Position numbers and translations under genes: made by a program. Of a DNA stretch of 64,000 nucleotides, positions 12,441-64,000 are shown in pieces. Source of the DNA: Candidatus Poribacteria bacterium (GTDB lineage: Bacteria; Poribacteria; WGA-4E; WGA-3G). How positions within the stretch are numbered: the stretch's first letter is position 1; the number at the start of each line of letters is the position of its first letter. Location: positions 864,001 to 928,000 of the forward strand of contig OZ251518.1 in NCBI GenBank assembly GCA_965242965.1, read 5' to 3'. The notes below the pieces were generated by a model, which saw nothing but the letters and a program-made list of their open reading frames with translations, searched no databases and had not been told where the DNA came from.

Positions 12441-12690
12441 CAGGGTGCTCATAAATCGCTCAACGTTAACAACGGTGACAGGCCCCGCGCTGCGGTGAAA
12501 AAAACGCCGTCCCTTCACGTAGGGCGAGGGCCTGTCCCTCGCCATGCCAAACGCGCATGCGAGCGGGTTTCCCTCGCCACGCGTTTGGATGTCAGACCGC
12601 ATCACCTCTGTAGTTCAGGAGCACCTGCTCCTGACCCGTTCGGGAGCAGGTGCTCCCGAACTACAGAACTGGGCCCGATGCGCCCCCTCG
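12441..12690. repeat. composite REP-like hairpin cluster
   Basis: Degenerate boundary motif at left, then CCTGT-loop and GGAGC/GCTCC hairpins. Confidence 0.85.
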
Positions 12691-12726
12691 CTTTTCTATC
12701 GCAAAAGCGCGCCGGTTTTGGCAAAC

Positions 12727-14802
12727 TCAAAATTCCAACGTCACCGCCAAAAACGGCACGATGGGCAGCTGATAGTTCGGTACCTCTTTCGTGAAACCGC
12801 TGTCATACCGGACCTGGAGGAAATTGGCGCGGTTATAGACATTCCAAATTTCAAGACGCACCTCCACTGTGACTAAATCGCCGAGAGGCTTGGCGTATGC
12901 CATCGCCAGATCCAAGCGGTGATACGGCGGTGTCCGTTGCCGTTCACCGTAAATCGGCACCCATTTCTGCTCTTTAGTAAAGGGATTGGTATACCGTTCC
13001 CGGTCGGCGAGAGGTGAATAGAGCGCGCCGCTCATGTATTGCCACTTCGCACTGACGCGCCACGATTCGCTGCTGTAGCGCGCCGCCGTTGTTACCGAAT
13101 GCGGCCTGTTGTAGGAATAGTCCCGTTCGGCTTCGTTCGGAAAATCACGACGTTTGGAGAGGGTGTAGGCATACGAAAGCCAAGCCTCAAACGCCTCTGA
13201 AATTTGGTGCTGGACAGAGCCCTCAACGCCGCGCGCGAAGCCGACTTGCGCGTTCTGATACTGCCTTTCAGCTTGATTGTAAACAACCAGATCGGTGAAG
13301 GATTTGTGATAGCCAGCGAGGTATATTTTCGTTTGCGATGCCAATTCCTGTTCCAATTCCACGACGTAGTGCGTGGCAAGGCTCGGCGTTAAGTCAGGAT
13401 TGCGATTGCCAAGCACACCCTGGTCTAGCCGTGGACTCTGGGTATAACGGCCATAACTGACGTGCAGGGAGGCATCCGAACCCAACGCGAAACTGAGCGA
13501 ACCGCGTGGTTGAACGGAGAGACTATCTGTCAGATTCAAGTAACTCAGCCGTGTTCCGAGTGTTCCGGATAAAAACGTCAGCGACTGATAACTCGCCTGC
13601 GCGTATCCTTCAAAGCGATGCAGGTTTGAGGTTTCAATAACAGAGACTTTTTCGCCGCTGCGCCGCACTCGGAATTCGTAGTCTTCGTCACCTTCTTCCG
13701 GTCTGCGCGCGCCATCGCTCTGAATTATGGTCGGACTTCTGGAAAGCAGAATCCCGAATGCTACTTCGGTGCTGCCGGCAGCGGCGTAAGTTACGTCGCT
13801 GCGGAGGGAGTAATCAGACGCGGCATCGCGATAGAAATACCCCTCGCCAAACGCCAATTCAATCTCCGAGAACGAACGAGTGAGCGAGGTAATTGAACGC
13901 AGTTTGGGGGAAAACTGCGAGTAGAGATGAACGCCTTGCGCATCAAACGGGTTATCCGAATCAACGGGCCCACGAAGATCGCTTTCGTGAGTCTCGCGCG
14001 CGCCGAGGTATAATTTGGAGGCATCATACGCCGAGACAGCGTTGATAACGATACCGTGGGTAGCATTCAGTTTGTAAACGCCTTTGAGTTGATAACTCCA
14101 GAAACTCGGCACTTCTCTCACCAGTTCTTCTAACTCCACTAGCCGCGAAGCCAGTTGGTAAAACGGACCCAGGTAACTCCGCCTGCCGAACGCATACCAA
14201 TACCCGTGTCCTGCCACCTCATTTTTGAGGAATTCGGCATCGGTGGAAACTGGATACGGTTGTGTTTTCGGGGAGTTGTGTCCTATTTTTCCGCCGAGGA
14301 ATGCCTCGGAATAGATAGGATTGACCTTCACGATTCCATCGAAAAGTCCTGTTGTTCGCGGGCGGGAGTGGATGTCAATTACCGCCTGTGAATCCGCGCC
14401 GAACTTTGCGTCAAACCCGCCCGGGTAAACGTCAATCCGTTCAATGACATCGGCACTGACGACAGAGACGATGCCGAGCAGATGGTAAGGAAACGCCAAC
14501 GGCAGCCGGTCGAGGTAGTAACGGTTATCGCCGGGTGCACCACCTCGGACAGAGAGGACTCCCATGAAATCGTTTAGCGTGCTGATACTCGGATGTAGCG
14601 TTATCGCTCGGAACGGATCATCGGCACTGCCGGGGAGTGCTGTTAACGTTTCGCCATCAATTATCTGCGGTTTTTTGCGGAGCCGCTGCGTCATGACTTC
14701 AATGGGAGCCAGTTGATGCACGTCGTCATCGTTGTCTTGCGCAAAAGGTGCCGTTGGGATGATGAACAGGAGTAAGGTTAAATAGAGAATGGGCCGCGTC
14801 AT
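12727..14802 (-). CDS. TonB-dependent receptor
   Basis: Plug motif SVRGG..DN.YYLD, VYPGGFDAKFG, PPYHRLDL and C-terminal Phe. The upstream ORF extension is repeat-derived. Confidence 0.88.
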   Translation of the reverse strand: MTRPILYLTLLLFIIPTAPFAQDNDDDVHQLAPIEVMTQRLRKKPQIIDGETLTALPGSADDPFRAITLHPSISTLNDFMGVLSVRGGAPGDNRYYLDRLPLAFPYHLLGIVSVVSADVIERIDVYPGGFDAKFGADSQAVIDIHSRPRTTGLFDGIVKVNPIYSEAFLGGKIGHNSPKTQPYPVSTDAEFLKNEVAGHGYWYAFGRRSYLGPFYQLASRLVELEELVREVPSFWSYQLKGVYKLNATHGIVINAVSAYDASKLYLGARETHESDLRGPVDSDNPFDAQGVHLYSQFSPKLRSITSLTRSFSEIELAFGEGYFYRDAASDYSLRSDVTYAAAGSTEVAFGILLSRSPTIIQSDGARRPEEGDEDYEFRVRRSGEKVSVIETSNLHRFEGYAQASYQSLTFLSGTLGTRLSYLNLTDSLSVQPRGSLSFALGSDASLHVSYGRYTQSPRLDQGVLGNRNPDLTPSLATHYVVELEQELASQTKIYLAGYHKSFTDLVVYNQAERQYQNAQVGFARGVEGSVQHQISEAFEAWLSYAYTLSKRRDFPNEAERDYSYNRPHSVTTAARYSSESWRVSAKWQYMSGALYSPLADRERYTNPFTKEQKWVPIYGERQRTPPYHRLDLAMAYAKPLGDLVTVEVRLEIWNVYNRANFLQVRYDSGFTKEVPNYQLPIVPFLAVTLEF

Positions 14803-14807
14803 TTGAA

Positions 14808-15672
14808 TTATTTGAGGGTATTTCATAAATCGTTTTCCCCGGTAGGAGAGACCTCCTGGTCTCGATGCAATAGGGGGCGCGCCGGCAGAAAGCCCCCCCT
14901 TCATTGTAGGGCGAGGGCCTGTCCCTCGCCATCGCTCGCGCACTCCAACACTCGCGGGGGATAGGCAACCGCACTACGAAAAAAACGTCTCTTAGGTCCG
15001 TAGGACCTTAATGTCTATAGCACGTGAAGCTGCGAAGAACGCTAAGGTCCTTTAGGTCCTTAATAGTTTTTGAGATGCCGCGTGCTTTTTTATTAAGGAC
15101 CGAAAGGACCTTGACGTGAACCGGCACGTTTATCTATAGACATGTAGGACCTAAAGGACCTAAAACGCCCCCGCTTGGCGATGGAGATCGCGGGGGACAG
15201 GCCCCCGCGCTACGGTAAAAATAACGCCTGCCTTTCACCGTAGGGCGAGGGCCCTCGCATGCCATACGCGCATGCGAGCGGGTTCCCCTCGCCATCGCTC
15301 GCGCAATCCAACGATCGCGGGGGACAGGCCCCCGCGCTACGATAAAACGCCGCCCCATCACGTAGGGCGAGGGCCTGTCCCTCGCCAGCGTTCGCGCGCT
15401 AGGCTCTGTAGTTCAGGATCACCCGATCCTGACCTGTTTGTGATCAGGCGATCACAAACTACAGACAGGGAAGCACATGACGCTGGCGATCGCGGGGGAC
15501 AGGCCCCCGCGCTACGATAAAAATAACGCCTTCCTTTCATCGTAGGGAGGGCCCTCGGATGCCACACGCGCATGCGAGAGGGTTTCCCTCGCCAATGCTC
15601 GCGCACTCCAACGATCGCGGGGGACAGGCCCCCGCGCTACGGGAAAAATCGAGACCGGGAGGTCTCTCCTAC
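14808..15672. repeat. composite REP-like hairpin cluster including the ~172-bp inverted-repeat element
   Basis: Boundary motif at 14808, multiple GTAG hairpins and the element at 14992-15163. Confidence 0.9.
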
Positions 15673-15688
15673 AACTCTGTGGCAAAAA

Positions 15689-17914
15689 TCAAAACGCCGC
15701 CGAAATGCCTAAATACGGGATGATCGGGAACTGATTCACCGGTTCCTTTGTCTTGTAATCCGCGCTGTAGTTGTATTGCAACAAATTTGCACGGTTATAG
15801 GCGTTGAGGAGCTCCAAGAAGACACCCAACTGCCACCCGCTAAATTTAAAGGTTTTACTGACGCGCAGATCCAACCGATGATAAGGCGGAAGCCGGTCCG
15901 AATTCGTCTCACCATAAGTCGGAATCCAGATGGCTTTTCCGTTTCTCGGGTCGATGCCAGGGGTTGTCGCAATAATAGGCGTGTAAGGGTTGCCAGACCG
16001 GTACTGCCATTTCGCGCCAATTTCCCACGTCGGTGAAAGGTTATAGCTCGCGACGAGAGTGGCGACATGCGTCTGATCAAACGAGTAGAGCCGATAGGGT
16101 TCTTCGGGCCGGTCGCGGCGTTTGGAGAGCGCGTAAGCGTAAGATACCCAGCCGAAAAACCGTTCTCCGATCCGATGCCGGAGGAAAATCTCAGCCCCTT
16201 GCGCATAGCCGGTGCCTTGATTCAGATAGCTGCCCTCGCGATCGGAAGTAACGAGACCTCTGAAATCTTTATAGTAACCAGCCATCTTAATCTCTGTATC
16301 GGGTGACAGCTCCTGTGTCAATTCCATGATGTAGTGACTCGCCTCACTGGCACCCAGGTCTGGGTTTCCAATGGAGGCAGAGAGGAGCCAAGGTTGCGGG
16401 CTCTGGTTGTAAACGCCGTAGGAGAATTGGAGTTCTGAGCTGTTTGGCAGTTCAACGAGGATGCTGCCGCGCGGTTGGATGGAGAGTTCATCGATGCGGC
16501 TGAAATAATCAAACCGCATCCCGAAAACAACGGACAACATCGGTGTCAGTGCGAACCGGTCTTGTAGATATCCTTCAGTTCGTATGCCTCGGACGGACTC
16601 ATCCACGGTCTGCCGTTCCTCAAAGCGAATGTCGTAATCCTCTTCGCCTTCGTCGGGTATGCGACTGAAAGTGCCGGTGACTTGACCCGGTTCCAAGGCG
16701 AGGACGATGCCGGATTCCAACTGATGCTTGGGTGTGACATTGAATGTGAGGTCTTCGCGTAGGACGTAGTCCGGTGCGTCAATGTTGAGTGAAAACGCGG
16801 AACCGATATCAACGTCAAACAAGAAATCGGAACGGGTTAAGGATAAAAAAGAGGTTAACCGTTCTGATAAAAGGGAGCGGAGGTGGATGCCTGCGCCGTT
16901 GAACCCGCTTTGAAATTGCGAGTCGCCCCGGAATTCTTCGTCCACGTCTTCGCCATCTTGCCTGAAAGCGAACCGGTCGCCGGATGCGAAGAGGTTCGCC
17001 GACAATTGATGTTTGTCTCCGAGATCGTAGCCTCCTTTGAGTTGGTAATCCCAGAAGCGTGGAAATGCCGTAATCGCGCCTGTATCAAAGGACAACGAAT
17101 TAATAAACAGATCGATGTAGCTACGTCGTCCTGCGGCGTACCAGTATCCGTTGTCTCCGATGTCGCCTTGGAGGACACCTTCCGAGTAAAGGAGATTCAG
17201 GTTAAATTTTCCGTGCAGTCCGCCACGGCTACTATCTTGTGAATAGATGTCAATGACTGCCTGCGAGTCAATGCCAAATTCTGCGCCGTAGCCGCCGGCA
17301 TAGACATCAATCCTGTCAATAATTTCGGAGCTCACGGATGAGACGAGTCCTCCGAAATGGTAGGGATATCCAAAGGGCACCCTGTCAAAATAGTAAAGAT
17401 TGTCTTCGTCGGAGCCGCCGCGGATATAGAGTGCGCCGCTAAAATCGTTCGCGACACCGATGCCTGGGAGCGCGGGTAAGGCGCGCAGCACATCGCCGCC
17501 GGTGCCGGGTAAACGGGTGAGTTCCTCGGCACCGAGGCTTTTCTTGCTTACCGTTTTCGCCTCCCGTTTATCGGTTACCTCTATGCCTTCCAGTTCATAA
17601 GTCTCCATTTCGACGTTAATTTTGGGATTAGCCGTCTCACCGGCGACGACGGTGACAGCGGTTCGCGTTGTTACATCGGAATTCGGAACCGCGACGACGA
17701 GGGTATAAATGCCTTCGGGGACATCTGTGATGACAAACCTCCCGTTTTCATCGGTGGTTTGAAGTTCGTTTGTCTGGAGAAGGCGGACTTCGGCATTCGC
17801 TAACGGTGTGCCGGTGTCCCGGCGAGAGACGGTGCCTTCAATATTGCCTGTTTGTGCAAGGGCGGCGAAGGGTAATAATAACACCAACGCGCTGTAAAAA
17901 AACTGCTTTACCAT
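15689..17914 (-). CDS. TonB-dependent receptor with N-terminal carboxypeptidase-regulatory-like domain
   Basis: AGGAG RBS before MVKQFF, signal peptide, QTGNIEGTV, LYIRGG..DNLYYFD, RLPPYHRLDL and C-terminal Phe. Confidence 0.9.
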   Translation of the reverse strand: MVKQFFYSALVLLLPFAALAQTGNIEGTVSRRDTGTPLANAEVRLLQTNELQTTDENGRFVITDVPEGIYTLVVAVPNSDVTTRTAVTVVAGETANPKINVEMETYELEGIEVTDKREAKTVSKKSLGAEELTRLPGTGGDVLRALPALPGIGVANDFSGALYIRGGSDEDNLYYFDRVPFGYPYHFGGLVSSVSSEIIDRIDVYAGGYGAEFGIDSQAVIDIYSQDSSRGGLHGKFNLNLLYSEGVLQGDIGDNGYWYAAGRRSYIDLFINSLSFDTGAITAFPRFWDYQLKGGYDLGDKHQLSANLFASGDRFAFRQDGEDVDEEFRGDSQFQSGFNGAGIHLRSLLSERLTSFLSLTRSDFLFDVDIGSAFSLNIDAPDYVLREDLTFNVTPKHQLESGIVLALEPGQVTGTFSRIPDEGEEDYDIRFEERQTVDESVRGIRTEGYLQDRFALTPMLSVVFGMRFDYFSRIDELSIQPRGSILVELPNSSELQFSYGVYNQSPQPWLLSASIGNPDLGASEASHYIMELTQELSPDTEIKMAGYYKDFRGLVTSDREGSYLNQGTGYAQGAEIFLRHRIGERFFGWVSYAYALSKRRDRPEEPYRLYSFDQTHVATLVASYNLSPTWEIGAKWQYRSGNPYTPIIATTPGIDPRNGKAIWIPTYGETNSDRLPPYHRLDLRVSKTFKFSGWQLGVFLELLNAYNRANLLQYNYSADYKTKEPVNQFPIIPYLGISAAF

Positions 17915-18002
17915 GTCGGTAAATTTCTCCTTATTGTGCGAAAATTGGATATGTTTCAATTGTAACATTTCCATCGTCAGAATTGCCAAGAATTGGCGAA
18001 AA

Positions 18003-18490
18003 TTAAAATGAGGGTGTTTCCTAACTCGTGAGACCTTGAACGATTCCGTTTCCCCAGTAGGAGAGACCTCCTGGTCTCGATTTCTTTCTTCTTTCTGTCG
18101 TCGTGCCTACCGGGGCCGCGGTGCCTGTAGGTCAAGATCGCCTGATCTTGACCTGTTTGTGATCAGGCGATCACAAACTACAGAGGAAGAAACACACATC
18201 GTGACGTTGGAGATCGCGGGGGACAGGCCCCCGCGCTACGGTTGTCGAGGCCGTCTTCCTTTCATCGTAGGGCTTGGGCCCTCGCATGCCACGCGCGCAT
18301 GCGAGAGGGTTTCCCTCGCCATCGTTCGCGCGCCAGGCTCTGTAGTTCAGGAGCACCTGCTCCTGAACTGTTTGTGATCAGGCGATCACAAACTACAGAG
18401 GAGGGCACAATGTCTTCCGGGAACATCGAGACCAGGAGGTCTCTCCTACCGGGAATGCATCGAGACCCCGAGGGCTCTCCTACCGGCCCC
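18003..18490. repeat. composite REP-like hairpin cluster
   Basis: Boundary motif at 18003, GTAGGAGAGACC..GGTCTC hairpins at both ends and GATC-family doublets. Confidence 0.9.
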
Positions 18491-18492
18491 CG

Positions 18493-20799
18493 TTAAAATT
18501 CATAAATAATGCCGGTAGAAACAATGAAGGGAAACTGCGGAATCTCCGTTAATTCGTTTAACTCCTCAGCATTAGATTCTTCGTTTTGTGAAACGACTTC
18601 CAGCAACTCATCGGAGAAAACGAATTTCATCACATTTCTGCGGTTGTAGACATTCAATACTTCCACAAATCCAGTGAGCGGGAGTCCCCACAATTCCCGT
18701 TTGGCGTTCATCCGCAGATCTAACCGGTGATACGTCGGCAGGCGTGTCCGGAAGGCAGAGCCCACCTCTCCAGAAAGAAGCGGGTGCATGCCGCGTGTCC
18801 CCGGGTCTTGGATGAGAATCAATTCGCTCAACGGGACAGCAGAAGTGCCGCTGGAAAATTGCCACTTCGCGCCTACCTCAATCCGAGGTGTGAGGCTGTA
18901 ATTGCCCACGATGCTGACGATGTGAGTATTATCAAAGAGATAGGGTTGATACTCGGCATGCGGGTAAGCGCGTCGCTCGGCATGCGTCCATGCGTAAGAG
19001 AACCAACCGAAGAATTTCTCATTGACTCGGTGCCGCACGAAAACCTCCGCGCCGCTAATAGTTCCATCTCCCTGATTGCGATAGCCTTCTGCCTCGTCGC
19101 GAGTGACGAGATTCTCCGATGTCTTGTAATATCCTGCCAATTTGAACTCCGTTTGCGGTGACAAGTCGTGCTCTAATTCGGCGATATAGTGGTGCGCGAT
19201 ACTGGATTTCAAATTGCGGTTTCCTCTTTCGGTAAACAACTGATACGGCTGTGGGCTCTGTTCATAGCGGCCGTAAGCCAACCGAAGCCGGGAACTGTTC
19301 GGCAGCGTGAACACGAAGGCACCCCGCGGCTGAACGGAAAGTTCCTCTGTTAGATTGAGATGATCAAGTCTCACGCCTGCGGCAGCCGACAGAAAGGGGA
19401 CAGGTTCATAGCGCGCCTGCAAGTAACCTTCCGTTCGGCGGACTTGGATGTTGAAATCGTCGCGGGTTTGTCGCCATTCCATCTCTCCATCGTCTCCATC
19501 GTCACCTAATTCAGAAGGGAGGATAGGGACGGTGGATACCTCGAAACTTTTCGGTGAACCGAAGGCAATCAGGAACCCGGGCTCCAACCGAAACTTCGGC
19601 GTTAAGTGATACGTCACGTCCTCGCGGAGGGTGTAGAGAGGCGCGTTCACTACGACGTTGTATCTGAATTCTTCATCGGCATCACTCGCTTCCGCACCGA
19701 AATTGATGTTGAGGAAATTGAGGGAGCGCGTCAGCGATAAATGCGACGTAAGTTCCGGCGTAATCTCCGAACGGAGATGAATGCCGCCACCTTCAAACCC
19801 GTTTTTGAAATAGGCATTGAACGGCGAGACTTCCTCATCTTGCCCTAAATCGGCGTTGGAGAAATCGAAATGATCGTTCGCGCTCAAGGCGTTCAGCGTC
19901 AGGTGATGTTTGTTCGTAAAATCATAAGCGAATTTGAACTGATAATCCGAAACGTAGGGAATCGTGAAATTGAAGAAGAGCCCGAAAATGAGATCGGGAA
20001 TGGAACGGCGCGCGGCGGCGTAGGCGTATCCATTATCCCCGATTTGTCGCTCAACGAACGCTTTCGGATATAAGATGTTCAGGTCAAGGACACCGCCCCA
20101 TTTTTTAGTTGCACGTTCGCGGGAACGGATGTCCAACACCGCCTGCGAATCCATGCCAAATTCCGCGCCGTAGCCGCCGGCATAAATCTGAATCTCGTCA
20201 ACGATATCTACATTTATTGTTGAGACGAGCCCGCCGTAATGGAACGGATAACCGAACGGCACTCTATCAAAGTAATGGAGGGTATCTCCCGGTGCGGCAC
20301 CGCGGATATAGAGGATACCGAAAATGTCATTTGGAATGCCGATGCTTGGCAGCGTCGTGATGCCCTTGAGTGCATCGCGTCCCGTGCCGGGGAGACGAAT
20401 CAACTCGCTTTTGCGAATATCTTTGCGGCTAACAGTCGACGGCAGTCGTTCGCCTTCCACAATAATTTTCTCCAACGCGACGACTTCGTCAAGGCGGATT
20501 TCCACCCGCGTCGTTTCGTCTGCCTTGACGACAAACGTGCTTTGTTGCGGTGTATCAAAAGACGGATGCGAGATGGACACCGTGTAGGTGCCCGGGGCAA
20601 TGCCGGTGAACGTGAATCGTCCTGCTGCATCGGTTGTTTGGTGCATGTCGGTTTCAAGCATAAATATATCGGCACCGGCGAGAGGGGTTCCTGTGTTTTG
20701 ATTGATGACGGTGCCTTCAATCGCGCCGGTCTGGGAAAAAACTATCATTGGCATCGCGAGAATCAATAATAGCGAGAAAAGAGTGCTTATGCTTTTCAC
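18493..20799 (-). CDS. TonB-dependent receptor with N-terminal carboxypeptidase-regulatory-like domain
   Basis: Paralogue of the previous two: QTGAIEGTV, LYIRG, YAGGYGAEFG, RLPTYHRLDL and C-terminal Phe. Confidence 0.9.
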   Translation of the reverse strand: MKSISTLFSLLLILAMPMIVFSQTGAIEGTVINQNTGTPLAGADIFMLETDMHQTTDAAGRFTFTGIAPGTYTVSISHPSFDTPQQSTFVVKADETTRVEIRLDEVVALEKIIVEGERLPSTVSRKDIRKSELIRLPGTGRDALKGITTLPSIGIPNDIFGILYIRGAAPGDTLHYFDRVPFGYPFHYGGLVSTINVDIVDEIQIYAGGYGAEFGMDSQAVLDIRSRERATKKWGGVLDLNILYPKAFVERQIGDNGYAYAAARRSIPDLIFGLFFNFTIPYVSDYQFKFAYDFTNKHHLTLNALSANDHFDFSNADLGQDEEVSPFNAYFKNGFEGGGIHLRSEITPELTSHLSLTRSLNFLNINFGAEASDADEEFRYNVVVNAPLYTLREDVTYHLTPKFRLEPGFLIAFGSPKSFEVSTVPILPSELGDDGDDGEMEWRQTRDDFNIQVRRTEGYLQARYEPVPFLSAAAGVRLDHLNLTEELSVQPRGAFVFTLPNSSRLRLAYGRYEQSPQPYQLFTERGNRNLKSSIAHHYIAELEHDLSPQTEFKLAGYYKTSENLVTRDEAEGYRNQGDGTISGAEVFVRHRVNEKFFGWFSYAWTHAERRAYPHAEYQPYLFDNTHIVSIVGNYSLTPRIEVGAKWQFSSGTSAVPLSELILIQDPGTRGMHPLLSGEVGSAFRTRLPTYHRLDLRMNAKRELWGLPLTGFVEVLNVYNRRNVMKFVFSDELLEVVSQNEESNAEELNELTEIPQFPFIVSTGIIYEF

Positions 20800-20814
20800 T
20801 AAAAAACGCCTCTC

Positions 20815-22061: not shown

Positions 22062-22089
22062 GGTTTTTTTTGTATTGGGGCGTTTTGCA

Positions 22090-29828: not shown

Positions 29829-29846
29829 GTTGTGCTGCCTTTATAG

Positions 29847-30287
29847 TTAAATGAGGGTGTTTCATAATTCCGTTTCGGATTTATCCCGCCTTGGAGGGTG
29901 GGATAACACCAGAAGGCATCGGGCCCACCTCTGTAGTTCGGGATCGCCCGATCCCGAACGGGTCAGGAGCAGGCGATCCTGACCTACAGGGGTGATGCGC
30001 TCTGCCAGCCAAACGCATGGCGAGGGACAGGCCCTCGCCCTACGGTAACCCGGGGCGTTTTTTTCTGTCGATCCGTTCGGGATCAGGCGATCCCGAACTA
30101 CGGTCTTTTCCAAGGTCTGGGCACGGCGAGGGAAACCCGCTCGGATGCGCGTGTGGCATGCGAGGGCCCAAGCCCTACGCGAAGGGGTGGCGTTTTTTTA
30201 TCGCAGCGCGGGGCCCTCGGATGCCACACGCGCATCCGAGAGGGTTTCACCGCGACGTTGAGCGAGTTATGAAACACCCTCAGTTAA
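29847..30287. mobile_element. inverted-repeat-bounded, REP-filled non-autonomous cassette (MITE-like)
   Basis: Left end TTAAaTGAGGGTGTTTCATAA (29847-29867), right end TTATGAAACACCCTCAgTTAA (30267-30287). The interior consists mainly of GTAG hairpins. Confidence 0.55.
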
Positions 30288-30378
30288 ATGCATCGAGACC
30301 AGGAGGTCTCTCCTACTCCCCATCTGTAGTTTGTGATCGCCTGATCACAAACGATGCATCGAGACCAGGAGGGCTCTC

Positions 30379-31649: not shown

Positions 31650-32303
31650 GTTTCATCGTAGGGCGGTAGGAAAACCTGTCCCTCGCGATGCATTTTGGTG
31701 TCAGACCGCATCACTCCTGTAGGTCAAGATCGCCTGATCTTGACCCGTTCGGGAGCAGGCACTCCCGAACTACAGAGGTGGGCGATGCCTTCCGGTAGGA
31801 GAGACCTCCTGGTCTCGATGTTCCCGTAGCGCGGGGGCCTGTCCCCCGCGATCTCCATCGTTACGATGTGTGTCCCCCCTGTAGTTTGTGATCGCCTGAT
31901 CACAAACAGGTCAGGATCGCTTGGCAAAGATGCCAGAGCTTCAGACGATCCTGCCCTACAGGGCCCGGCGCGTGAACGATAGCGAGGGACAGGCCCTCGC
32001 CCTACGGTGAAGGATGGCGTTATTTTTTTCGTATCGCGGGGGCCTGTCCCCCGCGATCTTCATCGTTACGATGTGTGTTTCCTCTCTGTAGTTTGTGATC
32101 GCCTGATCACAAACGGGTCAGGATCAGGCGATCCTGACCTACAGAGCCTGGCGCGTGAACGATGGCGAGGGACAGGCCCTCGCCCTACGATGAACGGGGG
32201 GGTTTCTGCCGCCGCGGCCCCGGTAGGCGAGCCGCCCTATTGCATCGAGACCGGGAGGTCTCTCCTACACGAACACATCGAAATATGAAACACCCTGAAT
32301 TAA
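31650..32303. repeat. composite REP-like hairpin cluster
   Basis: Multiple GTAG hairpin families; boundary motif at 32285-32303 faces right. Confidence 0.9.
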
Positions 32304-47453: not shown

Positions 47454-48413
47454 GTGGACAGACTCAAAATCGTTGTTCCCGGCGATGCGCCGCCGCAAAT
47501 TCAAGGCTCGCCGCATCTGGAACGCCTGAAACCTTACGGCGATGTGGTGGTATACAACGACAGACCGGGGACTCCTGAAGAGAAACTTCGGCGCGCCGCT
47601 GATGCAGATATTCTCATCAATTCGCGCGGGTTGGTAAAGTGGCCCGCGGAAATTCTACGGCAGCTGCCCAAACTGAAACTCATCTCGCTGTGCTCTATTG
47701 GCACAGACATGATTGCGCTAGACGCGGCGAAAGAGCGAGGCATTGTCGTCTGTAATCAACCGGGCCGCACCGCGCCTGTCGTCGCCGAGCACAGTTTCGG
47801 GCTCATGTTCGCGCTGGCTAAACGCGCGGCATTCCTGACAGCGGCAGTGAAAGCCGGTGAATGGCCGCGCAGGGATAACGTCTATTTGCAAGGGAAGACG
47901 CTCGGCGTTATTGGCACGGGGCATATCGGTTCAGAAATGGCGCGCCTCGGCACCGCAATCGGCATGAACGTTATCGCATGGACATATCACCCCTCTGAAG
48001 AACGCGCGAAGCAGTTGGGTGTGCAATTCGTTGCGTTTGACGAGCTGCTCCGCGATTCGGATGTCGTCAGCCTGCATGTCAAGTTGACAGCGGCCAGTCG
48101 GCATCTCATCGGCGAGCGCGAATTGGGGTTGATGAAACCGAACGCGCTTTTAATCAACGTCGCGCGCGGCGGTGTGCTGGACACAGATGCCCTCGTCCGT
48201 GCCTTAAATAACGGATACCTCGGCGGTGCCGCCATTGATGTCTATGATGAGGAACCGCCACCGGCAAATCATCCGCTCCTGTCATGCGAACAGGTGATTT
48301 TCACGCCGCATTGTGCGGATATGACACCGGAAGGCGTTGAATTGCTCAATGAAGGCGCGGTGGATAATGTCATCGCTTTTTTGGAAGGGGAACCACAGAA
48401 TGTGGTGGGTTGA
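47454..48413 (+). CDS. D-isomer-specific 2-hydroxyacid dehydrogenase
   Basis: GKTLGVIGTGHIG, DVVSLH, LINVARGG, DVYDEEP and TPH; GGAGG RBS with GTG start. Confidence 0.92.
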   Translation: MDRLKIVVPGDAPPQIQGSPHLERLKPYGDVVVYNDRPGTPEEKLRRAADADILINSRGLVKWPAEILRQLPKLKLISLCSIGTDMIALDAAKERGIVVCNQPGRTAPVVAEHSFGLMFALAKRAAFLTAAVKAGEWPRRDNVYLQGKTLGVIGTGHIGSEMARLGTAIGMNVIAWTYHPSEERAKQLGVQFVAFDELLRDSDVVSLHVKLTAASRHLIGERELGLMKPNALLINVARGGVLDTDALVRALNNGYLGGAAIDVYDEEPPPANHPLLSCEQVIFTPHCADMTPEGVELLNEGAVDNVIAFLEGEPQNVVG

Positions 48414-48414
48414 G

Positions 48415-48925
48415 TGAGGGTGTCTCATATTTCGATGCGTTTCGGTAGGAGAGACCTCGGGTCTCGATTTCTTCGGATAGGCGCGCCCTCCTGGTCTCAA
48501 TGTGTTTCGTATCGGGACAAGGATGTCCCGCCTACCGGAAGGCATCGGGCCCATCTCTGTAGTTCGGGAGCGCCTGCTCCCGAACGGGTCAGGAGCAGGC
48601 GCTCCTGAACTACAGAGGAGATGCGCTCTGCCCGCCAAACGCATGGCGAGGGACAGGCCCTCGCCCTACGGTGAAAGGGGGCTTTCCTCCACCCGTACCG
48701 CGGGGGCCTGTCCCCCGCGATCGTTGGGTTGCGCGTGCATGAACGCTGGCGAGGGACAGGCCCTCGCCCTACGGTAACGCACGCCGTTTTTTATCGTAGC
48801 GCGGGGGCCCTCGGATGCCATACGCGCATCCGAGAGGGTTTCCCCCGCGATCGTTGGAGTGCGCGGACGATATTGAGACCGGGAGGTCTCTCCTACGGGG
48901 ACGCACATTCACAAAATGCGCGGGT
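48415..48925. repeat. composite REP-like hairpin cluster
   Basis: Boundary motif at 48415 followed by several hairpin families. Confidence 0.9.
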
Positions 48926-52229: not shown

Positions 52230-52824
52230 TTACGGTGACAAAACGCTGCCCCTTCACGTAGGGCGAGGGCCTGTCCCTCGCCATCGCTCGCACTACGGAA
52301 AAAACGTCTCTGGTTCTCTTCAGGTCCGTAGGACCTGCATGTCTATAGCACGTGAGGCTGCGAAGAACGCTAAGGTCCTTTAGGTCCTTAATAGATTTTG
52401 CCAGGGCCGCGCGTATTTTTTATTAAGGACCTAAAGGACCTTGAAAACGGGACGACACGTGTTTCTATAGACATTAAGGACCTAAAGGACCTAAAACGAT
52501 GCGTAGGAAAAAAAAACGGCGTGCGTTACCGTAGGGCGGGGGCCTGTCCCTCGCCATCGTCCGTGCACTCCAACGCTCGCGGGGGACAGGCCCCCGCGAG
52601 CTCCATCGTCATGAGGTGTGCTTTCCCCTCTGTAGTTTGTGATCGCCTGATCACAAACGGGTCGGGATCAGGCGATCCCGAACTACAGGGTCTGGCGCGA
52701 GAACGCTGGCGAGGGACAGGCCCTCGCCCTACGATGAAAGGGGGGATTTCTGCCGCCCTATTGCATCGAGACCGGGAGGTCTCTCCTACTGGGAAGACAT
52801 TGAGATATGAAACACCCGCAATTA
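52230..52824. repeat. composite REP-like hairpin cluster including the ~175-bp inverted-repeat element
   Basis: Element at 52320-52494; boundary motif at 52805-52824. Confidence 0.9.
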
Positions 52825-52829
52825 TTTTC

Positions 52830-55431: not shown

Positions 55432-55434
55432 TGT

Positions 55435-56210
55435 GAGCGTGCCTATTCCGTGCCTATTCCGTAGGGCGAGGGCCTGTCCCTCGCCATCGCTCGCACAATC
55501 CAACAATCGCGGGGGACAGGCCCCCGCGCTACGGTGAAAAAAACGGTTTTTATTACCGTCGCGGAGGACAGGCCCCCGCGCTACGATGGAAAAACGCCAC
55601 CCTTCACCGTAGGGCGAGGGCCTGTCCCTCGCCAGGCCGGGTCACAAAGACAATGTTAATTATCGTAGGGCGAGGGCCTGTCCCTCGCCATGCCTAATGT
55701 CCCCAAACCCCGTTTTGACTGTTTTTCCGAAACGGAATTATTTCGGTTTCCGCGGCGATCGCGGCACGACGAGGGACAGGCCCTCGTCCTACGGTTAAAA
55801 GCAGCCATCTCGGTTTCCCCGGCGCGCGGCACGACGAGGGACAGGCCCTCGTCCTACGGTTAATTGAGGGTGTTTCATAAATCCGCATCGGGCCCACCTC
55901 TGTAGTTCGGGAGCGCCCGCTCCCGAACGGGTCAGGATCAGGCGATCCTGACCTACAGGGGGTGATGCGGTCTGACAGCAAAAACGCACGACGAGGGACA
56001 GGCCCTCGTCCTACGGTGAAGGGCAGCGGTAGGAGAGACCTCCCGGTCTCGATTTTCGCGGCGATCGCGGCACGACGAGGGACAGGCCCTCGTCCTACGG
56101 TTAATTGAGGGTGTTTCATAAATCCGCATCGGGCCCACCTCTGTAGTTCGGGAGCGCCCGCTCCCGAACGGGTCAAGATCAGGCGATCTTGACCTACGAA
56201 GGGCCGCGCC
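55435..56210. repeat. composite REP-like hairpin cluster with an internal ~130-bp direct duplication
   Basis: GACGAGGG/CCCTCGTC variant four times; ~55826-55957 is repeated at ~56067-56198. Confidence 0.9.
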
Positions 56211-56217
56211 AATTTGA

Positions 56218-57513
<1,296 letters not shown>

Positions 57514-57514
57514 T

Positions 57515-58075: not shown

Positions 58076-58094
58076 CAAGGAAATCTCGCTCATC

Positions 58095-59102: not shown

Positions 59103-59132
59103 GGGGTTTGTCTCCGTGTTGATTTTCGTGAT

Positions 59133-59764
59133 TGTCTGGAGCAGGATTTCCAAGATTTCCAGGATTTGCAGGATTAGAGGGCTCTTGGCGAGGCAAATCA
59201 GCTTTCCTACCGTAGCGCGGGGGCCTGTCCCCCGCGATCTACCAACCTATGCGGAAAACGTCCGCAACCCAGAGACTACGGATGTTTGCTGCTAAGATCG
59301 GCGCATGGCGAGGGACAGGCCCTCGCACTACGTACCATGCGGCGATTGCCTATTTCTTACCGTAGCGCGGGGGCCTGTCCCCCGCGAGCCTCTTGTTGTC
59401 TGGAGCAGGATTTCCAAGATTTACACGATTTACACGATTATCTCCCGCGCAACGAGCATTCCTTTTGCAATGGATGCCTCTTAGGTCCTTTAGGACCTAC
59501 ATGTCTATAGAAAAACAGACATGCCCCCGTTTTCAAGGTCTGCTAGGACCTTAATGAAACGAGACATACGGCACAACTACACATTAAGGTCCTACGGACC
59601 TTAGGTTCATCGTGTCGCGAGGAGCTATAGACATTAAGGTCTTACAGACCTTAGGCATAGCGAGGGACAGGCCTTCGCCCTACGTGAAAGGGCGGCGTTT
59701 TTTCACCGAATCGCAGGTGCCTGTCACCGCGACGTTGAGCGAATTATGAAACACTCGCAATTAA
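59133..59764. repeat. composite repeat cluster
   Basis: GATTT-periodic units, REP hairpins, 174-bp element at 59481-59654 and boundary motif at 59744-59764. Confidence 0.85.
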
Positions 59765-59829
59765 CCTGAATCGTTCGGGCTCGCTCAATGCCGAACTAGA
59801 GGCGCGAGACGTATCAAGTTAATTTCATA

Positions 59830-60225
59830 TCACACAGTGCCATCCATAGGTTCTAAGGCAAGCATGTCCTCGGTATACGCATTGACATCGTCGTTGACAA
59901 CGGCGCGATCTACGCAGACGCGGGTGTGAAACCCTAACCCCGTGAGAATTTCAAATAAATTATCTAGGGACAGCGCGTGCTTTGCCTCAAGCGTTCTGTA
60001 GAGACGTTGCAAGCTGCCATTTGTGCGCGCTGCCAATTTCTCAACCCCGCCCTGTGCTTCAACTACCGTGCGGATGGCGTTGGCGAGGATTTCGGTATTG
60101 CCGTCCTTCTCATATTCCTCTAGAGAGACTTCCAGATAGTGCTTTGCAGACTCTGGGTTTGCGAGGAATTTGAGGAGGAAGTCGCTGAAGTTTCCGGTGC
60201 GCCGAAGAATGAAGTCATTGTTCAT
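59830..60225 (-). CDS. putative addiction module antidote (HTH) protein
   Basis: YLEVSLEE..AIRTVVEAQGGV..LA..LYRTL..LGF; overlaps the toxin stop; AGGAG RBS. Confidence 0.8.
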   Translation of the reverse strand: MNNDFILRRTGNFSDFLLKFLANPESAKHYLEVSLEEYEKDGNTEILANAIRTVVEAQGGVEKLAARTNGSLQRLYRTLEAKHALSLDNLFEILTGLGFHTRVCVDRAVVNDDVNAYTEDMLALEPMDGTV

Positions 60226-60556
60226 CAGCATTTCTCCTAAATTCATTCCAATAGTTTTGGGCTCTTGCAATATCGCGATGCTGCGTTCCTTTTGTTCCGC
60301 CGCAAAGCAAGATCACAACGTTGTTGCGAAAAACCCCGAAATAGATTCGATAGCCGGCCCCATAGTGGATCCTCAATTCATATAAGTTGCTATCTAACCT
60401 CTTGTAGTCGCCACGGTGTCCTTGCCGCAGACGCTCAATCCGCTCGGTAATGAGAGCCTGCACTTTGGTATCGCGAAGCTGCATGAACCATTGTTCAAAA
60501 GGATTGCGCCCCGCGGGTGTAAGATAGTAGAGGATCCTTCTCCGTTTCATTTGCAT
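60215..60556 (-). CDS. RelE/ParE-family addiction module killer toxin
   Basis: PFEQW..RIERL..G.GDYK..ELRIHYGAGYRIYF..LLCGG.K.TQ..DI. Confidence 0.88.
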   Translation of the reverse strand: MQMKRRRILYYLTPAGRNPFEQWFMQLRDTKVQALITERIERLRQGHRGDYKRLDSNLYELRIHYGAGYRIYFGVFRNNVVILLCGGTKGTQHRDIARAQNYWNEFRRNADEQ

Positions 60557-60562
60557 GTTTTA

Positions 60563-60591
60563 AGTATAAAATATTTTTAGCAAATTGTCAA
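60563..60591 (-). promoter_or_regulatory. sigma70-type promoter, leaderless TA operon
   Basis: Minus strand TTGACA-17 bp-TATACT; ATG 6 nt downstream. Confidence 0.65.
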
Positions 60592-61103
60592 ACGAGGTCC
60601 GGAGGCGGCATCGCGGCTGTTGTCTGAATCAGGATTTGCAGGATCATGTCTACAGTAAAGACATTTCTGCAGGAAGAAGGACGATTAGGAAAACCTGATT
60701 GTCTTGACAGGCGTAACCCTGCAGAGATGACCATTTATAGGATTTGCAGGATTAGGGGTTTTGTTGAAGCAAACTTCCTTCCCTCGTAGAGCAGGAGCCT
60801 GTCTCCGGTGCCCGTAGTCACCTTGCGAGGGACAGGCACTCTCGCTACGAGGCTGAGGGACGGTTTCAGCAACGCAATTTTCTCTCGCGTAGTTTCGGGC
60901 TCTCCCGATTTCAGTCAAGTCAGGCTCAGGAAGTCTTGACTTATAAATGAATTTGATATAACCGCCCACGAACTAATAGGAAAAGTGCAACGATTTTCAT
61001 GATAATCCTCCGTGATAGTCAGCAGGAATCCGCACCTGCCCCTATCAGATGTGTCATGCAGGGACATCCGTGTGTCCCCGCATGACTGACTAGAGCAACT
61101 TCG

Positions 61104-61345
61104 TCAGTGGTGAAGAAGTTTATTCAACTCTTCAGTTGCCGAGAGGATCGTTTTTTCGTTTTCACGAATCGCCTTATCCAACTCAATTGCTGTCTCGGCA
61201 GAACACTCCTCGGCGTAGAATTTTTTTTCTTGAGGAGTTCGTTCCGCTTTTCGGCTTCATCAATAACGCGCTGAGCATTCTTACGAACATCATCGCGTAT
61301 TTCACCAGCCTCTTTTATGAGCTGGTTCATCTGACTGCGTCCCAT
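61104..61345 (-). pseudogene. small coiled-coil protein apparently frameshifted at an A8 run
   Basis: GAGG RBS. A shift at 61221-61228 gives ...LLKKK-FYAEECSAETAIELDKAIRENEKTILSATEELNKLLHH*, which continues the acidic coiled-coil character. Confidence 0.45.
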
Positions 61346-61649
61346 GAGTTTACCTCTTTTTGAATTTCTTGGAGTTGATCGGTATTGTTCAATTGCAAGT
61401 TCCGGGTTTGACGCGAATAAAATCGGCGCGTCATGATTTACTAAGCGCGATACGGCACGTTCATTCGCGCGCCGCTATAAGTCCGAGTGCCGCCCCGACG
61501 ACGCGACAGAGGCGATTCACGAACTCGCACTATTGACAACAGTTAATAGGATACCACAAAAAACACAATTTTGCAAACAAAAAATGTTCGCGAGATTTTG
61601 TTGACAGGATTTTCGAGAAAACTCTCCGGTCTCAAGTGAAGGGAGTTTG

Positions 61650-61895
61650 TCATTCTTCTCCCCGTATCGCCTTCCCCAATTCCCGGACCCTGTCCAATAT
61701 GAACTGCCACAAAATTTTGGGAATCAGGATAACATGTACCAAAAATGCGGCGAAGATTGCAAAGGCAAAATGTTTACCTTCAAGATCACTAGAATAATTA
61801 TTTGCATCGGCAATCAACAGGACCAAAATAAAAATTGCTATTGATCCTACAATTGCGGTAACAATCCTTTTGTTGCTATAGAACCTATTGTTCAC
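61650..61895 (-). CDS. small two-TM membrane protein
   Basis: GAGGA RBS with GTG start, two hydrophobic helices and low GC. Confidence 0.6.
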   Translation of the reverse strand: MNNRFYSNKRIVTAIVGSIAIFILVLLIADANNYSSDLEGKHFAFAIFAAFLVHVILIPKILWQFILDRVRELGKAIRGEE

Positions 61896-62071
61896 GTTTT
61901 TACTTCCTCGCTATTCTGAAAAGTGAGGAATAGGCCTTGCCACCCCGTTTCCCCTTCGTCAACCTCACTTAATCATTAAGCGAGGTTCTGCGGAAAACCC
62001 GTCCTTAAACGGTTTCGCCATCGGCGATTTTTAATAAGATACCATGTGATAACAAAAAAGTCAACCGTTTT

Positions 62072-62680
62072 TTAGACAATCTCATCAATCGCTTCACAAA
62101 CGTCTTCAATGAAATCGACCGCCTGCTCCGAATCAGCAGCAGAAATCGGCCAACGAATCGCAGGCTGACCTGGGGAGCTCGGGGCCCAGTCTGCCTCATG
62201 CGCAATCTGATTTCGGCGATCGACGATGGCAAGGAGCCGATTTTTTACCTCTGGAACGGTTGAATTAAGTTTCGCAGCGACAGATGGCCACAACTCACAT
62301 CCGGAAAAGAGCCGCACTGCATCGGCTATCTTGTCGGGGCGTTGGAATGCCTGATATCCATGCTTTTCGCGAATCTCCTCCTCAAGCCACTCATTACGTC
62401 CCGGTCGGACAATTGCTTTTATCACTGCATCCATGGCGACTTGGAAGCGCGAGAAGGCGTTCGTCTGCGGACGTTTCCCATCGTATCCCTCTAACATACC
62501 GATGCGTGTGATTTCGTGGATGTAGAGATCCATCGCGCTGACGGCCAAAACGATTTGCGAGCGGAGGAGATCTGTCAAATCCACAGCAGGGGTTGTCAAT
62601 TGCCCGAAGGCGTGATAGAGACCGCCGAGGGCGCGAACCCGTTCCATATTTTCTCTGAATTGCTTGATAGGGTTATTCAT
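62072..62680 (-). CDS. HEPN domain protein (RiboL-PSP/MAE_28990-like)
   Basis: DLLRSQIVLAVSAMDLYIHE helix and RRNQIAH (RxxxxH) motif. Confidence 0.8.
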   Translation of the reverse strand: MNNPIKQFRENMERVRALGGLYHAFGQLTTPAVDLTDLLRSQIVLAVSAMDLYIHEITRIGMLEGYDGKRPQTNAFSRFQVAMDAVIKAIVRPGRNEWLEEEIREKHGYQAFQRPDKIADAVRLFSGCELWPSVAAKLNSTVPEVKNRLLAIVDRRNQIAHEADWAPSSPGQPAIRWPISAADSEQAVDFIEDVCEAIDEIV

Positions 62681-63779
62681 CTTTTGTTAGTGCGATGATC
62701 CGCTCCGCGCCTGCAGCGAAGAGTTCGCGAAACTTCAGCATCGCCTCCTTGGTATTTTCGAGAGCGTTTCCAGTTCGTCCGATTTGCGCATCAGTCAAAT
62801 CGAAAACCGGGGCTTTATGCTCTTGTGAAAGCGCGATGAGACTGTTGAAGTCTGACATCTGAAGGAGCGGCCGTGCTATGACCAGATTCGGAAATAGAAG
62901 CGGTAATAAGAGAGGGATAGGTTCTTCGGCATCTGAGGCAATCTGGCTTGCCTCTTCATATCGTTCTACCGGAAGTAGCATGTCGTTTTCCCTTAACGCA
63001 GGGATGAGTTTTGTCTCAATTCCATCTCTGATTTTGTCAATCCACCTTTGAAAGGCGGCAGCAGGAATCCCCTCCCTGACGCGATAATTCTGGATTATCG
63101 TTCCGAGAAACTTGGGCGACTTATCAGGGAACGGATAAATCGCATCTTGTAAGAGAGATGAGGCTTTCACGTGCTTTGCCCACCCTGACCACTTCGGCAG
63201 GAAAGAGGCGAGGCTCTCCGTTGCCATGGCAGAGAAGTAGTCCGGAAACATTGGCACGATGAAATAGTCGCATGTCATGAGCAGATTCTGGTTCATCGGT
63301 CCCACGCTTGGGCTCATGTCAACCAAGATAAAATCGGCATCATATTCTTCCGCGGTTTGCTGGAAAAGATAGTGAAGAGAGCCCGGCAAATTCTTGAGGG
63401 TGACGAGAGAGCCAGACAGTTCTTGGGCAATGCCCAAAGTGACTTCGTATTCGGCGAGCCTGATGTGCCCTGGCAGCAGATACATGTTCGGTTGAGATTT
63501 AACCTGCGCGCAGACTACCGGTTTAATGACCACTGGCCGCGATTCAAAAGCGGGGGAAAGTCCATCGCGGATATCCCGAACCTCTTCGGACTCGTAAATC
63601 AATTCAAAATCTCTGGCACCCCTGAAACCGAGCACCATGCCGGTGAGGTTACACTGCGGATCGCAGTCAACGATGATAACCTTCTTTCCTTTGTTGGCGA
63701 GCATCCAGCCGAGGTTGAAGGTAGTCGTCGTCTTGCCGACTCCGCCTTTATGGTTGAAAAGCGCGATCTGTTTTGCCAT
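62673..63779 (-). CDS. ParA/Soj-like ATPase (conflict-associated type)
   Basis: FNHKGGVGKTT deviant Walker A, VDCDPQCNLT, ILVDMSP and FIVPMFPDYFS. Confidence 0.88.
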   Translation of the reverse strand: MAKQIALFNHKGGVGKTTTTFNLGWMLANKGKKVIIVDCDPQCNLTGMVLGFRGARDFELIYESEEVRDIRDGLSPAFESRPVVIKPVVCAQVKSQPNMYLLPGHIRLAEYEVTLGIAQELSGSLVTLKNLPGSLHYLFQQTAEEYDADFILVDMSPSVGPMNQNLLMTCDYFIVPMFPDYFSAMATESLASFLPKWSGWAKHVKASSLLQDAIYPFPDKSPKFLGTIIQNYRVREGIPAAAFQRWIDKIRDGIETKLIPALRENDMLLPVERYEEASQIASDAEEPIPLLLPLLFPNLVIARPLLQMSDFNSLIALSQEHKAPVFDLTDAQIGRTGNALENTKEAMLKFRELFAAGAERIIALTKDE

Positions 63780-63812
63780 TGCAATTCTCCGATTGAGAGT
63801 TGTTTTGTGTTA

Positions 63813-63841
63813 ATTTTATCATGAATTGTTGTTGATGTCAA
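63813..63841 (-). promoter_or_regulatory. sigma70-type promoter of the ParA-HEPN operon
   Basis: Minus strand TTGACA-17 bp-TAAAAT with TG extension. Confidence 0.7.
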
Positions 63842-63855
63842 GGGAAAATTGTGAA

Positions 63856-64000
63856 TTAATAGAGGGCGTTTCATATCTTGATGGCTTCCCCGTAGGAGAG
63901 ACCTCCTGGTCTCGATGCAATACCGTAGGAGAGTCCTCCTTGTCTCAATATCGTCCGCGCAACCCAACGATCGCGGGGGACAGGCCCCGCGCTACGAAAA
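63856..64000. repeat. composite REP-like hairpin cluster (runs off window)
   Basis: Boundary motif at 63856, then GTAGGAGAGACC hairpins and a CCTGT-loop hairpin. Confidence 0.85.

Follow-up and report, generated by a model that had tools for sequence, protein, structure and literature searches.

What is the short sequence that stands at the edge of so many repeat clusters in the genome of a sponge-associated Candidatus Poribacteria bacterium, and why does it always seem to point away from the repeats? We examined this question in a window of 64,000 nucleotides (C1:864001-928000, the whole stretch of DNA analysed) from a symbiont genome of 5.70 Mb in two contigs, with 54% G+C and an assembly completeness of 94.7% by markers (G000 hereafter). 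A preliminary description of this window had noticed a motif of about 20 bp that caps clusters of repetitive extragenic palindromic (REP) sequences, and had offered two explanations for it: an end of a non-autonomous element carrying REP cargo, or a protein-binding boundary between hairpin arrays and promoters. Our analysis indicates that the motif very probably corresponds to the outermost 16-18 bp of the terminal inverted repeat (TIR) that bounds the members of a gene-less family of miniature inverted-repeat transposable elements, or MITEs, derived from an IS982-like insertion sequence (IS) of about 1.1 kb that encodes a DDE transposase and is common in Poribacteria. The first of the two explanations is thereby upheld by inverted pairs of the motif and by target duplications, by the presence in a related genome of an autonomous IS whose ends are identical, and by sites in congeners that are empty or much shorter.

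The motif is far more abundant than chance would allow. Within the window, a search permitting up to three mismatches recovered 11 copies, against none in shuffled sequences; seven lie on the + strand (at 14808, 18004, 29847, 48410, 55860, 56101 and 63856) and four on the - strand (at 30267, 32283, 52805 and 59744). Together with a more degenerate copy at 12441, these account for all 12 copies of the preliminary description, whose coordinates were off by 1-5 bp at most. Across G000, the 16-bp core TGAGGGTGTTTCATAA occurs in 339 exact copies and in 943 copies at up to two mismatches (0-1 in a shuffled genome), and a genome-wide scan with a 22-bp weight matrix at a threshold of at least 12 bits found 1032 copies versus about 10 in shuffled sequence. 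Aligned copies share the conserved block A.TTAA.TGAGGGTGTTTCATAA[A/C]TCG.T; their conservation stops sharply on the TTAA side and tapers slowly on the opposite side. In agreement with the preliminary description, the motif by itself does not fold (free energy of the 21-mer, 0 to -0.6 kcal/mol), and Rfam gave no matches at the gathering score over the whole window.

The placement of the motif relative to repeats is highly ordered. We masked all 12-mers with at least 15 copies in G000, which covers 15.4% of the genome, and merged the mask into 3196 clusters totalling 775 kb. Repeats occupy about 10% of the bases next to the motif on its TTAA side, compared with 82-95% over 200 bp on the opposite side. 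The common orientation described for junctions between cluster and unique DNA in the window extends genome-wide: 767 of the 1032 copies lie at an edge and point outward and four lie at an edge and point inward, with 238 internal to clusters and 23 outside them. Caps are not the sole type of cluster edge, and 2605 cap-less clusters (518 kb, mostly short) begin directly with GTAG-headed hairpins.

Many caps come in pairs. We considered as candidate elements those consecutive convergent caps (+ then -) that are less than 1.5 kb apart and enclose a repeat-filled interior; these comprise 268 of 334 convergent neighbouring pairs in the mismatch scan and 307 pairs in the weight-matrix scan. The 307 pairs measure 71-1131 bp (median 372 bp) and sum to 128,417 bp, or 2.25% of G000. 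Their termini read 5'-TG...CA-3', and perfect direct repeats lie flush with these ends in 121 pairs (6 bp in 80, 7 bp in 35, 8 bp in four and 9 bp in two), compared with 1.6 expected when left flanks are paired with the right flanks of other elements. A further 60 pairs have a duplication with one mismatch, against 18.4 expected with such shuffled partners. The 6-bp duplications have the consensus nTTAAn, and TTAA therefore belongs to the target and lies outside the element; it is the core of a variable, AT-rich target duplication of 6-7 bp and does not mark a fixed cut site. Inverted ends on both sides, direct target duplications, small size, the lack of a gene and high copy number together identify these units as MITEs, and an autonomous IS with the same ends exists, as described below. 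Some of these MITEs have transposed together with their cargo. Full-length partners are found for 87 of the 307 elements, and one family comprises 53 copies of about 268 bp with a median pairwise identity of 86% and a fixed layout of TIR, REP, REP doublet and TIR; 23 of its members have a perfect target duplication and nine have one with a single mismatch.

In the window itself, the ends and elements are arranged as follows.

12440-12461, + strand: degenerate TIR copy capping the cluster 12440-12720, with its outer side toward the 5' end of a DUF5916 gene; identified by its core and the subterminal ATCGCTCAACG, and missed at up to three mismatches.
14808-14828, + strand: TIR with a TTAA-like flank, capping a one-capped REP cluster that extends to about 15675.
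18004-18024, + strand: TIR capping the one-capped cluster 18009-18494.
29852-30282, no strand assigned: complete MITE of 431 bp, with TIRs at 29852-29867 (+) and 30267-30282 (-), the duplication GTTAAA at 29846-29851 and 30283-30288, and an interior of GTAG-headed REP hairpins.
32283-32303, - strand: TIR capping the cluster 31650-32303, with its outer side toward the start of a short-chain dehydrogenase/reductase (SDR) gene.
48410-48430, + strand: TIR at the edge of the cluster 48415-48900; a 2-hydroxyacid dehydrogenase gene lying upstream (47454-48413) has its stop codon in the flank of the end.
52805-52825, - strand: TIR capping a cluster on its left, with its outer side toward the start of a sulfatase gene.
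55860-55880, + strand: internal TIR copy with REP DNA on both sides, the first of a pair 241 bp apart.
56101-56121, + strand: internal TIR copy, 241 bp from the preceding one, with which it forms the duplicated pair.
59744-59764, - strand: TIR capping a cluster on its left, with its outer side toward the 3' end of an open reading frame (ORF) of 146 amino acids.
63856-63876, + strand: TIR capping a cluster that extends past the end of the window, with its outer side toward the start of a ParA-like gene.

The complete MITE at 29852-30282 folds end to end (-157 kcal/mol, z -17), with its two ends pairing together. The preliminary description had set apart the copies at 30267, 55860 and 56101 as further copies with repeats on both sides; all three are real, and those at 55860 and 56101 are internal, with REP DNA to the left and right. 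These two copies share the same orientation and have near-identical 60-bp flanks on both sides, and the pair looks like a local tandem duplication within a repeat cluster. We also observed, inside the cluster capped at 14808, a distinct and AT-richer repeat module (14990-15170) made of AGGTCCTTA/TAAGGACC-type words, unlike the GTAG hairpins.

The same ends bound a gene-carrying element outside G000. We scanned 40 related genomes for the 16-bp core, including two congeners of G000 (G001 and G002) and a member of another genus in the same family (G022). In G022, exact copies of the motif occur in pairs 1093 bp apart, bounding elements of 1109 bp. Four fetched copies are all 1109 bp long, have 18-bp inverted ends identical to the motif, and are flanked by the target duplications GATAAT, ATTAAT, ACTAATT and ATTAAAG, the same 6-7-bp AT-rich pattern as in G000; two G022 copies are identical over all 1109 bp. 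The 1109-bp IS is also present in another relative (G024), where its 16-18-bp ends are identical to the motif and flanked by duplications of 6-7 bp. Each IS contains a single ORF of 332 amino acids. A DDE transposase bounded by the same ends, one of the finds that the preliminary description had looked to, is thus present intact in G022 and not in G000.

The 332-amino-acid protein matches the Pfam families DDE_Tnp_1_3 (PF13612; 39.3 bits, cut-off 27) and DDE_Tnp_1 (26.9 bits, cut-off 23), and its best NCBIfam model is IS982 (NF033520), at 55.2 bits against a cut-off of 130 and hence below the equivalog threshold. A tblastn search of plasmids returned 76 records at about 25% identity, and the annotated features listed under the matches were all 'IS982 family transposase'. 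In a metagenome protein collection, we found 1329 relatives at E <=1e-5; among the 120 of these that were listed, the few with an organism name are each a 'hypothetical protein' of Candidatus Poribacteria, and all homologues listed with precomputed domains carry PF13612. A protein search of 41 genomes found seven identical intact copies in G022 and matches at E <=1e-10 in nine other genomes. The exact 18-mer end is almost confined to Poribacteria (55 of 62 among the loci listed), often in pairs about 1.1 kb apart.

Members of the IS982 family of ISfinder are about 1 kb long, with one ORF, short TIRs and short, variable direct repeats. By these ranges, the parent IS would resemble them in its dimensions (1109 bp, one ORF of 332 amino acids, 18-bp TIRs, 6-7-bp duplications). 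It has a DDE domain scoring over the PF13612 cut-off, and differs from them in its score of 55 bits against the NF033520 cut-off of 130 and in its identity of only about 25% to annotated IS982 transposases. Because it does not reach the cut-off of the curated IS982 model, we call the parent IS982-like and do not file it as a member of that family; protein comparison suggests a distant relative or sister group.

Two further observations concern the spread of this IS. In two fragmented Poribacteria metagenome-assembled genomes, the 18-bp end coincides exactly with the start or finish of many contigs (loci L057, L066, L069-L072, L074, L082, L083, L087-L089 and L103); in these genomes as well, the element seems to be present in high copy number and to interrupt assembly from short reads. 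Additionally, a variant end with one base changed, TGAGGGTGGTTCATAA, recurs in several relatives (G006, G019 and others), often at contig ends, and is probably that of a sister IS lineage.

The motif is far more numerous in G000 than in the genomes compared with it. At up to one mismatch, the 16-mer has 733 copies in G000 and at most 15 in each of the 40 relatives, with one in G002 and eight in G001. Gene order around the window is kept in both congeners at 78-92% nucleotide identity, and the segment 29844-30358 (513 bp), which contains the complete MITE, has no counterpart in G001. At other caps, the intergenic regions of G000 and G002 compare as follows.

Cap 18004: 540 bp in G000, 144 bp in G002.
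Cap 48410: 530 bp in G000, 99 bp in G002.
Caps 55860 and 56101: 816 bp in G000, 153 bp in G002.
Cap 32283: 740 bp in G000, 57 bp in G002.
Cap 12441: 346 bp in G000, 424 bp in G002 (longer in G002).
Cap 52805: 681 bp in G000, 1285 bp in G002 (longer in G002).

The two genomes can be compared base by base at cap 18004: where G000 has TTAAAA, the whole 486-bp cluster and TTAAAAT, there is one CTAAAAT in G002. The cluster 18009-18494 is bracketed by the direct repeat TTAAAA, yet a second TIR could not be recognised; it seems that the cluster was inserted whole with one canonical end, or that its second end was exactly replaced. The preliminary description had anticipated empty sites in relatives, and this one bears that out; at the other sites, including those with shorter or absent counterparts, diverged or replaced intergenic DNA blurs the picture. 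In metagenomes from four studies, contigs agree with the window as far as the CA terminus (window 30282-30287) and beyond it diverge into many different sequences, which is what a multi-copy element should produce at its end. Contigs in two runs (X4 and X6) span this MITE's left junction, at 29852; none of those listed crosses a removed element to give an empty allele, though contigs break at repeats.

If the elements moved as other elements with DDE transposases of the IS4/IS5/IS982 type do, the transposase would bind both inverted ends and excise the element, and the excised ends would be joined to AT-rich DNA cut with a stagger of 6-7 bp around an nTTAAn core; repairing that stagger would then leave TTAA outside each end. 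In G000, the transposase gene appears to have been replaced by arrays of GTAG-headed REP hairpins belonging to a separate system of REPs and REP-associated tyrosine transposases (RAYTs), and with such arrays in place of the gene, each transposed unit would resemble a REP cluster capped by outward-pointing ends. Remnants of the parent are present in G000. We identified six decayed IS left ends, each with the TIR, the leader and the first codons (IS positions 1-138) at 71-75% identity to the G022 IS, and at least two of them run directly into REP arrays. One element of 896 bp (C1:2778079-2778974) has a 7-bp target duplication and combines an IS left end, REP arrays in the place of the gene, and a right TIR. 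We read such transitional elements as intermediates between IS and MITE.

Several observations weigh against this account. No intact cognate transposase was found in G000 by tblastn, Pfam or protein searches of the 94.7% complete assembly. With the G022 protein as query, tblastn gave only two fragments in G000, at C1:2371353-2371663 (43-47% identity); a Pfam search of G000 returned nothing for PF13612 and nothing over the cut-off for PF01609; the 332-amino-acid protein found no match in G000, G001 or G002; and the 20 largest G000 protein families (at least 70% identity) include no transposase by Pfam. The score of the parent against the IS982 equivalog model is far under its cut-off. Target duplications are not recognisable in 126 of the 307 pairs, and 418 of the 1032 caps (about 40%) are solo, with no recognised partner. 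Of the 307 elements, 220, those with unique layouts, have no full-length partner, which points to frequent insertion, duplication or recombination of REP modules after transposition, and a large part of the cargo may have entered the elements, or been reshuffled within them, once they had inserted. The base-exact empty site comes from a single relative comparison, the others involving diverged or replaced intergenic DNA.

As candidates for an autonomous copy in G000, we considered 36 convergent cap pairs (up to 6 kb apart, not qualifying as MITEs) and screened all +/- cap pairs 0.7-10 kb apart for flanking direct repeats of at least 5 bp. The ORFs in the six best candidates were ordinary genes (ankyrin, Type ISP restriction-modification, PhoU, leucine-rich repeat, di-haem oxidoreductase and methylase), and these pairs are neighbouring elements that face each other across genes. 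We infer that a transposase of the G022 type moved the G000 elements, either in a burst followed by loss of the transposase or with the transposase supplied from elsewhere.

A search for diverged partners of solo caps (up to three errors including indels, within 1.5 kb) found 46 on the inner side against 57 in the outer-side control. In 14 of the 308 one-capped clusters that contain just one copy of the motif, the 7 bp lying outside the cap are found again at the far edge, where 1.2 such cases would be expected; the other 294 show no such repeat, and several of the 14 show a decayed second end. We infer that solo caps are remnants of two-ended elements.

What, then, are the repeats inside these elements? 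The interiors are made of G+C-rich, GTAG-headed hairpins, of which G000 contains 6407 perfect examples, about 20 times the number in a shuffled control. They are distributed over capped clusters (2022), uncapped clusters (3990) and other places (395), and since 3990 of the 6407 lie in cap-less clusters, REPs spread without the motif. A Y1_Tnp (IS200-like) gene at C1:3147583-3147918 (locus L008) has arrays of GTAGTTCGGGAGC hairpins on both flanks, a family that is also present inside MITEs; this layout is classical for RAYTs and points to such a gene accompanied by the REPs that belong to it. What the elements carry is therefore true REP DNA, for which a mobilising enzyme of its own can be presumed. 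The other Y1_Tnp match in G000 (C1:3125391-3125627) contains two in-frame TGA codons and has no surrounding repeats.

A stronger version of the MITE account, which we hold to be possible and on balance unlikely, is that two unrelated selfish systems have merged in this genome. RAYT-mobilised REPs would ride in MITEs of the DDE type and be spread by them, while REP arrays would remodel the interiors, with the loss of one end in about 40% of cases. The burst to about 1000 ends would have taken place in a genome now lacking the transposase gene, and a subset of elements, such as 18009-18494, may have moved with one canonical end. If this were true, either the elements would have been mobilised in trans by a transposase that co-resident Poribacteria supplied, or all autonomous copies would have been purged after a very recent burst.

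The relation of the caps to genes bears on the remaining explanations. Gene context was taken from a home-made ORF caller (3888 genes, 80% coding), and distances to genes are accordingly approximate. Seven of the nine edge copies in the window had been described as facing a gene 5' end, and by ORF coordinates they do; this does not carry over to the genome, where these ORF calls put a gene 5' end on the unique side of caps 506 times and a 3' end 436 times. Pfam confirms most of the gene names that had been assigned (DUF5916, one Plug/TonB-type receptor, CoaBC with DFP and Flavoprotein domains, SDR, sulfatase and ParA-like ATPase), and finds no match at 1e-6 for the second supposed TonB-dependent receptor (12727-14802). 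A search for a sigma-70-like promoter reading outward gave 73 loose matches among the 1032 ends, with at most 10 at any one position and spacing, and no consensus.

It is conceivable, and in our judgement improbable, that the ends derive from a transposon and have since acquired a selected role at gene boundaries as stop codons, read-through barriers or an outward promoter element. Each of the three frames that enter from outside meets a stop codon in the flank and end together (the TAA of TTAA, a TGA at the tip or the TAA of CATAA), and in 159 called genes the first base of the stop codon lies in the span from 8 bp outside the TG end to 16 bp within it; 37 of them stop within the end itself. 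The stop is the TAA of TTAA in 54 of the 159, the tip TGA in 24 and the TAA of CATAA in 13. Many caps also lie 0-40 bp from start codons. However, a target preference that includes TAA is enough by itself to produce such stops, and it makes insertion at gene ends cheap for the host; we do not take the gene stops at ends as evidence of selected function. The promoter part of this proposal meets the lack of a sigma-70-like consensus, and the distances to start codons have the approximate character noted above.

Much less probable still is a REP-based origin, in which the caps would belong to the REP system and mark the end of a unit moved by the resident RAYT (HUH/Y1) or another single-strand transposase. 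The GTAG-headed interiors, the Y1_Tnp gene at C1:3147583-3147918 with its flanking REP family shared with MITEs, and the failure of the PF13612 and PF01609 searches to find a DDE transposase in G000 would all fit such an origin. Y1 HUH transposases of the IS200/IS605 type act on hairpin ends and leave no target duplication, whereas the ends described here are non-folding inverted repeats without a GTAG head and with duplications of 6-7 bp; in these respects the motif itself is unlike a REP, and it is the cargo that has the GTAG hairpins. Moreover, the same ends flank a DDE gene in relatives, and most perfect GTAG hairpins (3990 of 6407) sit in clusters without a cap.

The remaining proposal, a host-protein binding site that keeps hairpin arrays apart from neighbouring promoters or delimits the arrays, is very unlikely: the cluster-edge position in a single orientation, the seven of nine window copies facing gene starts and the 146 of 506 5'-facing caps within 0-40 bp of a called start codon speak for it, but the edge position is fully accounted for by the motif being the end of an inserted unit, the genome-wide split of 5' and 3' ends (506 vs 436) is nearly even, the target duplications and the IS with the same ends mark a transposon origin, the near-absence of the motif from the congeners (one copy in G002, eight in G001) is not that of a conserved regulatory site, and there is no conserved promoter geometry or outward promoter. 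On the same grounds, the second explanation of the preliminary description falls away, and we return to the motif as the end of an IS982-like MITE.

A similar element is known from another host-associated bacterium. The closest described case that we found is MITECca01 of the Cardinium endosymbiont cOegib, an IS982-derived MITE with 169 copies that makes up 3.5% of the chromosome and is the most abundant mobile element there, and which is thought to be kept mobile by the intact parental ISCca4 of the IS982 family (PMC9769881). The G000 elements resemble MITECca01 in being gene-less, in being bounded by IS982-type inverted repeats and in having expanded in one lineage of a host-associated bacterium. 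They differ from it in having about 1000 ends, modular GC-rich interiors of REP hairpins in place of an IS remnant, and lengths of 71-1131 bp, as well as in the lack of an intact parental IS, a parent transposase that is only distantly IS982-like, and about 40% solo ends.

Correia elements have a TA duplication and a fixed body of 100-160 bp, and are in this respect unlike the G000 elements, which duplicate 6-7 bp and carry variable REP arrays. The Correia/NEMIS elements of Neisseria are among the bacterial MITEs named in PMC3733652. Like the G000 elements, such MITEs are TIR-bounded, intergenic and high-copy, form long hairpins when transcribed, and lie beside gene starts and ends. A general definition of MITEs in bacteria, together with a description of REPs with a GTAG head and of RAYTs, is given in PMC3733652, and the comparison extends to REPs, bacterial interspersed mosaic elements (BIMEs) and REP doublets forming hairpins (REPINs) with their RAYTs. 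The cargo agrees with these in its GTAG-headed, G+C-rich hairpins in alternating orientation and in a Y1 gene flanked by the same REPs. The motif itself departs from them, as it has neither a GTAG head nor a hairpin and is accompanied by target duplications, and REP clusters occur without it.

The G000 elements are thus a known kind of mobile DNA at an unusual scale. Our literature search, outside subscription journals and supplements, found no paper on MITEs in Poribacteria, and a phrase search of PMC3184786 gave nothing relevant on REPs inside MITEs. With the recurring boundary word explained as the end of a transposed unit, and not as a regulatory signal, a conspicuous feature of this genome is accounted for in ordinary terms. 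The parent IS of the most visible MITE family in G000 can now be named; its protein carries the label 'hypothetical' in those public records that bear a name. Annotators can take the 18-bp end together with the 6-7-bp duplication as a handle, both for masking the elements and for correcting gene ends, given the 159 called genes that stop at or in an end. Finally, G000 joins REP cargo and about 1000 ends to the lack of a resident transposase, and is for that reason a useful natural case for studying the interaction of MITEs with REPs and the ways in which bursts come to an end.

Some other multi-copy families in G000 came to light in the course of this work. A set of 37 paralogous proteins of about 201 amino acids has no Pfam match and is often arranged in tandem, with up to 13 in a row; it occurs at C1:1383756-1392077 and about 10 other places, unassociated with caps, and a D...EAK motif seen by eye is reminiscent of PD-(D/E)XK nucleases. 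Another family, with 17 members of about 300-400 amino acids and no Pfam match at 1e-5 or 1e-6, is represented in the window at 5108-6109 and at 16 other places in G000, and is one that we presume to resemble the Rpn/YhgA-type PD-(D/E)XK 'transposase-like' proteins. Restriction-modification genes are also present in multiple copies, with 14 N6_N4 methylase paralogues and two Type ISP-like families of nine and seven paralogues. In addition, G000 encodes many eukaryote-like repeat proteins, including WD40, ankyrin, leucine-rich repeat, tetratricopeptide repeat and FGE-sulfatase proteins.

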